Virus record (IMG/VR): IMGVR_UViG_3300032281_000616
Location: 128,001 to 192,000 of that record
Strand: one strand, 5' to 3'
Source of the DNA: a virus
Taxonomy: Duplodnaviria > Caudoviricetes
DNA: 64,000 nt
The stretch's first letter is position 1, and every line of letters begins with the position of its first letter. A program made the position numbers and the translations under genes. The notes beneath the pieces are model-generated. The model saw only the letters and a program-made list of their open reading frames with translations. It was not told the origin of the DNA and searched no databases. Below, in pieces: positions 38,713-41,070 of the stretch.

Positions 38713-40166
38713 TTAACTATAAAATTTAACGCCCATGTAACCATTTTTCACCATGAAAGATCTAATGATATCCATAGCTTTTCCATAATCCTTTCCCCAC
38801 ATAGGAGGAAAGCATATATTATCAATTTCATCTACCAAATCCTCATGGTAAAAATCATCACTTGTTCCATTAAAATTGATGGCATTAGTCTTGAAGAAAA
38901 TTCGATGACATTCGCTCCATGAAAGACGCCATTCTTTAACAGCGTAATCGAATAGTGTTGTATATTTGAGTCTTTTCATTGTTCGAAATCATCCCAATTA
39001 ATAGAGTCCAGATCAATATCCTCTTCAGGAGGATAAATTGGTTCGTATGAAGTCACTGTAGTAACCTTGGTTACTTTCTTCACTGGTCTTGGTGTATAGG
39101 AATCTTTTTGATAACCCTTACCTTTGTGACAATCTTCTAATAGTCGATTATTTAACCAATTTACAGCATAGTAATCGTTTCCTACTTTATGATATGATGT
39201 GTGCCATTCATTGCCAGAACCATCGTATTCTATGTCAGAGTGATCAATCTCTGGGTGATCTTTCAACCACATATTTAATTCTATTTTATTCATTATATTA
39301 AATCTTTATGTTCTTGAAATAATTTCTCTAGTTCGCTTCTCAGGGGATCATCGATATTCATCTCTTCAGAATGTATATCATAGTATATTGTATAAGTCCA
39401 ATGGTTTTCATCGTATCTATGGACTTCCATATCATCTATCGTAAGGTGATAGATTACTTCTTTTCTAATATTTTTAAGATTCATGACTCAGTATAACATT
39501 TCCGAATAAAGTGTATACCCATCTCCGCTTCCATGATCGGGAAATCTCATTTGTCCATTTTTTTCTGCAATAATATAAGCTTCTTCACGAGAAACCCATT
39601 CTCTTAGTTGAGTTATAAAACCCTGATCAAAATCTCGAAATCTTTCTGATTCCAATCTCTGAGAACGCATTACATCATCCCAATGTCTAGGTCCACATAT
39701 AATTCTACCAGTTTTCTTGTTTTTATTTGCAGCACAAACAATCCAAGGATCGGGTTTAATTAGACCATTTTCAGTCCAGTAATCACTCATTTCCTAAAAA
39801 AAAGATAAAATCGATTCCTTAAAAACATACCATACACCATAAACAGCGTATTTAATTTTTCTTACTACTTTCATATGAAAGTAATATACGCTAGTGTTTA
39901 ATAACTAAGTCTCACAGATTGGCATCCGTTACTAGAGGTGGATTAACAATTGGATAAAATGGTATCCAAATGGGCATCTCTATAGCTTTATCTAAAGGGT
40001 TAGAGTCTCTATTTGTATCTTCGTATGGGGAACATTCTTCGAGTGAATGTTTCTTCGATACGACTTCTTTAGCTGAGTCTATAATATCTTTAGACGAGTA
40101 TATGTCTTCTTTCAAATTAGAAGAAGATAAAAACATTAGTAACCTAAAGATAATTAAACTCTTCAT
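38713..40166 (-). CDS. block of small hypothetical genes (38713..38979, 38976..39293, 39293..39484, 39488..39790, 39912..40166)
   Basis: Abutting ORFs; 39488..39790 has the common phage pattern G.RH.D..QGF...SREEA..IA...GQ. Confidence 0.7.
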
Positions 40167-40597
40167 TTTCTACGTTTGAGTAACAATAGAGTTCCTAATA
40201 CACCACATAAAAAGGTAGTAGGTTCTGGAACACAAGATGGACTCCATACCGAATCTTTGAATACCTTCTTACCATTATCTATTTCAACCTTTTGCATTTC
40301 TGGTGCATTATCTGAATAAAAGCCAAATATCAGATACTCCTCTTTCTTATACTTGATATCATCAAATTCTATGTAATCTTTACCGTATTCTAATTCGTAT
40401 CGGTAATTTGTATATAGATCATATAGATCACATGAATCACATAGGTCTAAAGTAATTGTGTCAATATCCCTCTTATCAATCGATGCATCTACGATATATT
40501 CGTAATGGTATTTCGAACCATCAAATCCAACTGTGGAAGTGATATAAGATTGAGCTTGAGCCAAGCTAATCATCATTATTGCTAATAGTATCTTCAT
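40163..40597 (-). CDS. secreted PEP-CTERM sorting-domain protein
   Basis: Signal peptide MKILLAIMMISLAQA; C-terminal VPEPTTFLCGVLGTLLLLKRRK; TATAAATA at 40603-40610. Confidence 0.8.
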   Translation of the reverse strand: MKILLAIMMISLAQAQSYITSTVGFDGSKYHYEYIVDASIDKRDIDTITLDLCDSCDLYDLYTNYRYELEYGKDYIEFDDIKYKKEEYLIFGFYSDNAPEMQKVEIDNGKKVFKDSVWSPSCVPEPTTFLCGVLGTLLLLKRRK

Positions 40598-40605
40598 ATT
40601 GTTAT

Positions 40606-41070
40606 TTATAAAATCCAGTCTGGTTTTTCTCGGTTTGTCCATTTAAACAAATGTTTTTTTTCATTCAAATAATACGACCTGTAACTCGTTACAGGATCTT
40701 CTGTTTTATATTGGTCCGGCATAGCCAAAGCAAAAGGCGTCATTCCAACTTTAGGAAAAGATAATAGGTGTCTATTTTCTTCAACCCATTTGAGCAGAAG
40801 AGAACTTTTATGAACCTTATCGTATCGAATGATATTTTCTACACTTAAAGCCATTATATAGTCGATAACATATTGAAAGTTATCTTTTGATGTTCTTGTA
40901 AAAATGGCACAAGGATGATTTTGATGAGTGCAAGCGTATGGTGCTTTTACACCTTGTAGGTGAAAAGTTGTGCATATCAATTGTGTCGCCTCTAATAACA
41001 TTTTCATGTGTCTATCCACATGATAAGATGCTGATTTTTCTAAACAATCATCTAAAATAAACAAATTCAT
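40606..41070 (-). CDS. denV: pyrimidine-dimer DNA glycosylase (DenV-like)
   Basis: MNLFILD..L..SA.YH.D.H.KMLLEATQL.CT, THQNHPC. Confidence 0.75.
   Translation of the reverse strand: MNLFILDDCLEKSASYHVDRHMKMLLEATQLICTTFHLQGVKAPYACTHQNHPCAIFTRTSKDNFQYVIDYIMALSVENIIRYDKVHKSSLLLKWVEENRHLLSFPKVGMTPFALAMPDQYKTEDPVTSYRSYYLNEKKHLFKWTNREKPDWIL

Follow-up and report, generated by a model that had tools for sequence, protein, structure and literature searches.

A conserved PEP-CTERM-type protein and its small partner behind a putative late promoter of a T4-like phage

The 64,000-nucleotide stretch of DNA analysed here (the window) comprises bases 128001-192000 of the virus record IMGVR_UViG_3300032281_000616 and contains, on its minus strand, the gene of a small protein with a PEP-CTERM-type tail, which is followed by the gene of an even smaller partner protein. 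We think it probable that these two genes form a late accessory cassette, whose first product is exported, sorted by an exosortase of the host, and alters the surface of the infected cell. To our knowledge, exosortase is the only enzyme known to process the PEP-CTERM tag, and because of this the phage probably routes its protein through the sorting machinery of the host. The phage itself does not encode an exosortase (PF09721, no match at E <= 10). An earlier interpretation, made from the letters of the window alone (the sequence-only reading), had taken the protein to be phage-encoded. This is borne out by the complete record, a genome of 202,205 bp with direct terminal repeats, which belongs to a large uncultured T4-like phage. 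Its genes encode, among others, rIIA, rIIB, RNA ligases, and a Dda/UvrD-type helicase. No cultured phage has a capsid protein more than 33% identical to the gp23-type one encoded here, and comparing the region as DNA (megablast) and as protein (tblastn) to 50,697 phage records did not result in any match. A psbA gene was not found in the phage.

The anatomy of the protein (Table 1) agrees with the sequence-only reading in all its parts. These are a signal peptide, an acidic body rich in Tyr and Asp, for which about 105 residues had been given, and a tail composed of VPEP, a hydrophobic helix, and KRRK, all encoded on the minus strand. The signal peptide was judged by eye from the sequence, without a SignalP-type tool, and a similar N-terminus is present in at least 40 of the 44 aligned homologues described below. 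The body consists of 106 residues with a pI of 4.3, including 23 Asp and Glu (22%) and 13 Tyr (12%). Behind VPEP the tail continues with TTFLCGVLGTLLLL, a hydrophobic stretch of 14 residues, to which KRRK and then the stop codon are added, and in an AlphaFold2 model the C-terminal helix spans residues 128-143. The gene had been placed at 40163-40610. The gene is real but its coding sequence only covers 40163-40597, and positions 40598-40610 are upstream DNA. A longer reading frame starting at 40642 was also considered as the gene and rejected, because it overlaps the upstream gene and contains a stop codon in the nearest relative (L002:477-911, 59% identical). The nearest relative as well as a sister phage (L100) have retained the identical promoter box and ATG.

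The comparison with the protein's relatives provides strong family evidence for a predicted PEP-CTERM tail. When 1.84 billion representative proteins were searched exhaustively with phmmer, 46 homologues were obtained, which are mostly 140-170 residues long and can be aligned from end to end. The 44 aligned homologues are 25-59% identical to the phage protein, the mean column identity is 29%, and the sole invariant columns of the alignment are P124 and E125, the Pro-Glu of the motif. The consensus reads PSC-x-IPEPS...G...LL-RRR, and every one of the 44 tails consists of [VIAL]PE-x, 14-18 hydrophobic residues, and three to four Arg or Lys. The second Pro of the motif is present in 31 of them. 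At E <= 0.1, the PEP-CTERM model PF07589 matches 17 of the 44 homologues (best E 4.3e-5) and TIGR02595 matches 13 (best E 3e-4). Extrapolating from E-values to bits, the best homologues would be above the curated cut-offs of both models. In addition, 77 of the 100 nearest clusters by language-model features in the ESM Atlas are PF07589 clusters, and small PEP-CTERM proteins account for nine of the top 30 fold matches in AFDB. The sole NCBIfam match of the phage protein is to the tail of a PEP-CTERM family (E 0.069), and in a six-frame scan of the 202-kb genome with PF07589 the tail of this gene is the only match (E 0.005). PEP-CTERM features have been defined in bacteria (Haft 2006, PMC1569441), and the phage protein shows every one of those that are defined by sequence. 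The same genome-wide count of one differs from the several PEP-CTERM proteins expected per genome, an expectation that was made for bacterial genomes and has little weight for a phage. PHROGs does not contain a family for the protein or for its partner, and a profile word-index search did not add anything.

Several observations weigh against this identification, or against the sorting that we propose. The two curated models are only 24 positions long and have cut-offs of 20.7 bits (PF07589) and 16 bits (TIGR02595). With PF07589, the phage protein reaches 13.8 bits and its frame in the six-frame search of the genome 16 bits, which in both cases misses the cut-off. The search with TIGR02595, which the sequence-only reading had set as a test of the tail, was not passed, with 8.1 bits. 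When ten homologues were scanned singly, five matched TIGR02595 but stayed just below the cut-off (11.9-15 bits). Loose matches to such short sorting models were obtained in 13 of 14 control genomes. The second Pro of the motif is absent from 13 of the 44 homologues. In the nearest relative, VPEP is replaced by IPEI and all three cysteines by serines. Furthermore, cleavage of the phage protein by an exosortase and its subsequent transfer are assumptions, because the chemistry of exosortases on their substrates has not been established even in bacteria. Finally, genes for superinfection exclusion are not usually expressed late. The PEP-CTERM identity given in the sequence-only reading can thus be kept with respect to the sequence features, the conservation within the family, the model matches of the homologues, and the neighbours by language model and fold, but not with respect to the curated cut-offs, which the phage copy misses.

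Relatives of the protein are also encoded in cells. One homologue (P0038, L009:156-731; 30% identical in a pairwise BLASTP) is located on a cellular, Paceibacteria-like contig, 156 nt from the end of the contig, and has a canonical tail composed of IPEP, a helix, and RRRR. The neighbouring gene encodes a flavoprotein with about 60% identity to proteins of Paceibacteria (Patescibacteria). The family profile was also run against 301 Patescibacteria genomes and resulted in a single weak match, in genome G078 (L092:1-2772). The matching domain is located at the C-terminus of a protein that has a GT2 polysaccharide synthase as its N-terminal part. Aligned to the family profile with hhalign, the domain scores 95% with an E-value of 2.4e-8 over 115 columns, which include the cysteine in front of the motif, and the protein ends with IVPEA, a helix, and RRKK. 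The gene directly following the fusion belongs to the exosortase/archaeosortase family (TIGR04178 36.3 bits at a cut-off of 23; closest to archaeosortase C). Matches to PF09721 are present in 12 of the 301 genomes, six of them above the cut-off, and in three of the four other PF09721 loci that were fetched (L096, L097, L098) neighbouring genes encode tails composed of (I/V)PE(F/I/Y), a helix, and basic residues. Such predicted sorting systems are therefore present in a minority of the Patescibacteria, which are usually regarded as lacking an outer membrane. The L092 locus provides independent support for this domain, with such a tail, working with an enzyme of the exosortase family; it does not establish that the phage infects Patescibacteria.

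These data also bear on a simpler explanation of the tail. It might be a plain stop-transfer anchor, and the periplasmic domain might act at the membrane together with the partner, for example in the timing of lysis or in blocking the entry of phage DNA, without any exosortase being involved. The phage copy's failure to reach the curated PEP-CTERM models is in line with this explanation, and a membrane-held pair is plausible given that the partner also has an N-terminal membrane segment. In addition, lysis inhibition and exclusion are known in T4-type phages to involve small proteins of the periplasm or the membrane. However, it is hard to see why an anchor should retain Pro-Glu in front of the helix as the sole invariant feature in 44 homologues that are otherwise only 25-59% identical, and a plain anchor leaves unexplained the cellular copy of the domain, which has a similar tail and is encoded beside an exosortase-family gene. 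We therefore regard the anchor as rather unlikely and prefer sorting by a host exosortase.

The body of the protein is predicted with confidence but its fold is not telling. Modelled by AlphaFold2 with the family alignment (mean pLDDT 90.8), it adopts a nine-strand beta-sandwich, which is followed by the C-terminal helix. The matches to this fold are generic, comprising Ig-like or carbohydrate-binding-like domains, pilins, and adhesins, and none in the PDB is strong, so that the fold does not assign a function to the body. More can be learned from the cysteines. The columns of Cys53 and Cys122 co-vary within the 44 homologues, 33 of which have both residues and five neither, and in three of the remaining six the first cysteine is just shifted by one or two columns. 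This co-variation suggests that the two cysteines form a disulfide and that the domain resides in an oxidising, extracytoplasmic compartment.

The claim that the gene is under the control of a late promoter is supported by the whole genome. The TATAAATA box in front of the gene, which contains the TAA stop codon (40606-40608) of the upstream gene, is identical to the late promoter of T4, where it is recognised by gp55, gp33, and the gp45 clamp. Counted by itself, the octamer shows no enrichment in the window (9 observed, 11.4 expected). Taken together with the distance to the start codon the picture is different. TAAATA-N5-ATG is found at 54 sites in the 202-kb genome compared to 3-14 in ten Markov simulations (about 8 expected), the box-to-ATG spacing peaks sharply at 5 nt while other spacings account for 1-20 sites each, and 52 of the 54 sites open reading frames of at least 40 codons. 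Among the genes preceded by this arrangement are those of the portal, the tail sheath, and the head-tail adaptor. This placement and the genome-wide grammar support the box as a late promoter, from which late timing may be deduced. The homologous locus L093 has the box as TAAATA-N5-GTG. Because the T4 late box occupies positions -13 to -6, the predicted transcript would start at the A of the gene's ATG. The window is otherwise an early-type region. Seven of the 54 sites are located in it, and at least three of these seven precede endonuclease genes.

The promoter could also be read in favour of a decoy, that is a late product made in bulk that occupies or blocks the exosortase of the host, so that the surface and matrix proteins of the host are not delivered and the slime layer is loosened before release. 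The protein has the PEP-CTERM tail features that a decoy would need, the full TATAAATA octamer is found 5 nt in front of an ATG at only two sites of the genome, one of which is this gene, and the body is small and did not reveal a function in fold searches. For a mere decoy, however, a conserved and well-folded body would be needless, as would be a conserved disulfide and a partner. Such a role thus seems quite improbable compared to a protein that is sorted to fulfil a task of its own.

Table 1. Features of the cassette and its borders; positions refer to the window.
Feature	Position	Strand	Remarks
PEP-CTERM-type protein P0001, coding sequence, 144 aa	40163..40597, stop codon included	-	ATG at 40597, stop 40163-40165
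Signal peptide, residues 1-16	40550..40597	-	MK, hydrophobic core, and AQA before QS; no lipobox cysteine
Acidic Tyr/Asp-rich body, residues 17-122	40232..40549	-	predicted nine-strand beta-sandwich; Cys53/56 and Cys122
PEP-CTERM-type tail, residues 123-144	40166..40231	-	VPEP (123-126), hydrophobic helix, KRRK at the C-terminus
Partner gene, 84 aa	39912..40166	-	ATG overlaps the stop codon of the PEP-CTERM gene (ATGA)
TATAAATA box, T4-type late promoter (putative)	40603..40610	-	5 nt before ATG
AAACACTA box and TATATT hexamer (-10-like)	39883..39899	-	directly after the cassette; sequence present

The partner contains an N-terminal hydrophobic segment, the motifs SAKE-V and NPLD, and a proline-rich end. 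Given the overlap of the two genes, its translation is predicted to be coupled to that of the PEP-CTERM gene. Homologues of the partner, which are 18-43% identical and have SAKE-V, NPLD, and the proline-rich end in common, are encoded directly behind the PEP-CTERM gene, again with an ATGA overlap, at five other phage loci (L005, L006, L007, L010, L093). A complex prediction for the body and the partner gave a score of 0.03, which is no verdict and was counted neither way. Downstream of the partner, the AAACACTA box seems to be the start of the next, early-type transcription unit and thereby to mark the 3' border of the cassette. A simple scan for terminators after the cassette did not find any. 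Behind the AAACACTA box, the window (39800-39899, minus strand) contains a mini-ORF of 25 codons (ATG at 39874), which is followed by a T4_Y16D-like gene.

All five of the contigs of 4.9-188 kb that were read for homologues of the PEP-CTERM-type protein (L006, L007, L010, L093, L094) are phage-like with tightly packed small genes, and they carry YopX, ThyX, PhoH, T4 RNA ligase, or homing endonucleases. The homologue contigs that were fetched have GC contents between 32% and 56%, and therefore the hosts of the family's carriers probably differ. Loci related to single proteins were searched in viral contigs, and P0038 in genome contigs, in both cases without a match. Close relatives of the phage differ considerably in their cassettes. 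In the sister phage (150-kb contig, L100:4001-4225) an in-frame deletion has generated a chimera of 74 residues (P0017), in which 47 codons from the start of the PEP-CTERM gene are continued by about the last 35 codons of the partner, while the late box and the ATG were kept. The nearest relative has no partner gene but a spacer of about 100 nt in its place. Because of this deletion, and because of the loss of the partner and the changes to tail and cysteines in the nearest relative, the cassette is dispensable and has a fast turnover, as expected for genes involved in conflicts between phage and host or between phages.

Two small overlapping genes for envelope proteins behind a late promoter, the second of which is proline-rich, bring to mind a spanin-like pair linking the inner and the outer membrane in lysis, since spanin genes have a similar layout. 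However, across the family neither of the two proteins has a conserved lipobox cysteine following the N-terminal hydrophobic segment, and the first protein is a compact beta-sandwich instead of an extended, periplasm-spanning molecule. Moreover, sister phages have deleted or lack parts of the pair, and the phage already has a lysis cassette, in which a protein combining lipobox, coiled coil, and helix is encoded beside the endolysin. There is thus only a very slight chance that the pair acts as a spanin. The lysis cassette is located just before the start of the window (genome positions 124415-127723, minus strand) and encodes, in this order, a 110-aa membrane protein, a 229-aa protein, a 130-aa membrane protein, and a 634-aa endolysin. 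In the 229-aa protein, a canonical lipobox (VIGC) is combined with a long coiled coil and a membrane helix at the C-terminus, a layout resembling that of a one-piece spanin. As this layout would link two membranes, the host is probably a diderm.

A diderm host would fit to the sorting by an exosortase, because the organisms with PEP-CTERM proteins have an outer membrane (Haft 2006, PMC1569441). Searches with rIIA and the capsid protein only resulted in distant matches (capsid at most 33% identical to cyanomyoviruses) and did not indicate a host, and a search of the ESM Atlas with the CCA-adding enzyme was uninformative for the taxonomy of the host. Patescibacteria were considered as host on account of the contig encoding P0038 but are unlikely. 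The family was found in only one of the 301 genomes searched and in none of the five nearest, and the lysis cassette is diderm-like. Once confirmed, the tag would be a clue to the host, because the host must carry an enzyme of the exosortase family. However, the tag had been taken as a hint to particular phyla, and as such it is weak: since a few Patescibacteria likewise have exosortase-family genes and PE-type tails, it does not narrow the host to the phyla that had been named.

Taking anatomy, conservation, phage context, and promoter grammar together, we infer the following course of export, cleavage, and delivery. The late promoter, being fused to the start codon, would switch on the cassette late in infection. 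The first product would be exported by the Sec system, and its signal peptide cleaved off. Once in the periplasm, the body would adopt its small acidic beta-sandwich fold, stabilised by a disulfide, and the C-terminal helix would temporarily anchor the protein in the cytoplasmic membrane, with KRRK facing the cytoplasm. There, the exosortase, which the host would have to provide because the phage has none, could recognise the Pro-Glu and cut at or near the motif, and the cleaved domain would be passed to the cell surface or to the polysaccharide layer. In the envelope, the small co-translated partner probably acts together with the first product. The likely purpose would be a late change of the surface of the infected cell, for example by blocking virions or rival phages from binding to the dying cell and its debris. 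The cassette may thus serve late surface masking or the protection of the progeny from debris. The masking of receptors, the exclusion of superinfecting phages, and the saturation of the sorting enzyme, which had been suggested in the sequence-only reading, are candidate functions. A more far-reaching version would be that the host enzyme attaches the phage protein covalently to the polysaccharide layer of the cell, by way of a two-protein late cassette dedicated to this task in a T4-like lineage. We consider this version unlikely. If it were true, the body domain would be a module of the exosortase pathway that is shared with cells.

How exosortases act on their substrates and where these end up is unsettled, and a phage depending on an exosortase would offer a small, well-folded, and highly expressed test substrate. 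If the covalent version were true, this small, single-domain protein of the phage would lend itself as a probe of the acceptor and the chemistry of exosortases. Beyond this, the proposed sorting would be a further route, in addition to lipoproteins and inner-membrane proteins, by which phages may change the surface of the cells they infect. Literature naming both PEP-CTERM and phage did not include any title on PEP-CTERM proteins of tailed phages. A PEP-CTERM domain is mentioned for a virus-like mobile element of Dehalococcoides in a 2026 preprint. According to sequence, the proteins described here constitute a distinct family encoded on phage-like contigs, several of which are T4-like. Its features are a predicted late promoter of the leaderless type and a conserved partner, and one relative is encoded in cells next to a gene of the exosortase family.

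Compared to known systems, the cassette combines familiar elements in an unfamiliar way. The octamer of the promoter is identical to that of the T4 late promoters, and its core TAAATA precedes structural genes here as well. In contrast to T4, only 5 nt separate the box from the start codon, and the predicted message has neither a leader nor a ribosome-binding site. With the pairs of the PEF-CTERM/archaeosortase C type in Patescibacteria (L092, L096-L098) the phage protein shares a copy of the body domain, which is found at L092, a PE-type tail, and at these loci an adjoining gene of the exosortase/archaeosortase family. However, the phage family mainly has [VI]PEP, which is the classical bacterial form, and the L092 domain is fused to a GT2 synthase, is only distantly related according to hhalign, and was found in just one genome. 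There is also a likeness to the substrates of the bacterial PEP-CTERM/exosortase systems (EpsH, XrtA; PMC1569441), which also consist of a signal peptide, a body without known homology, Pro-Glu-Pro, a helix, and a basic end; the homologues of the phage protein match the models of these substrates, and its nearest neighbours by fold and language model are small PEP-CTERM proteins. The bacterial systems differ in several respects. The carrier is a T4-like phage of the lytic type that does not have an exosortase, there is one gene per phage genome compared to a bacterial median of eight, and the gene is preceded by a phage late promoter and not by a sigma-54 site. In addition, the phage copy scores below the curated cut-offs and, in contrast to the bacterial substrates, is paired with a small conserved partner.

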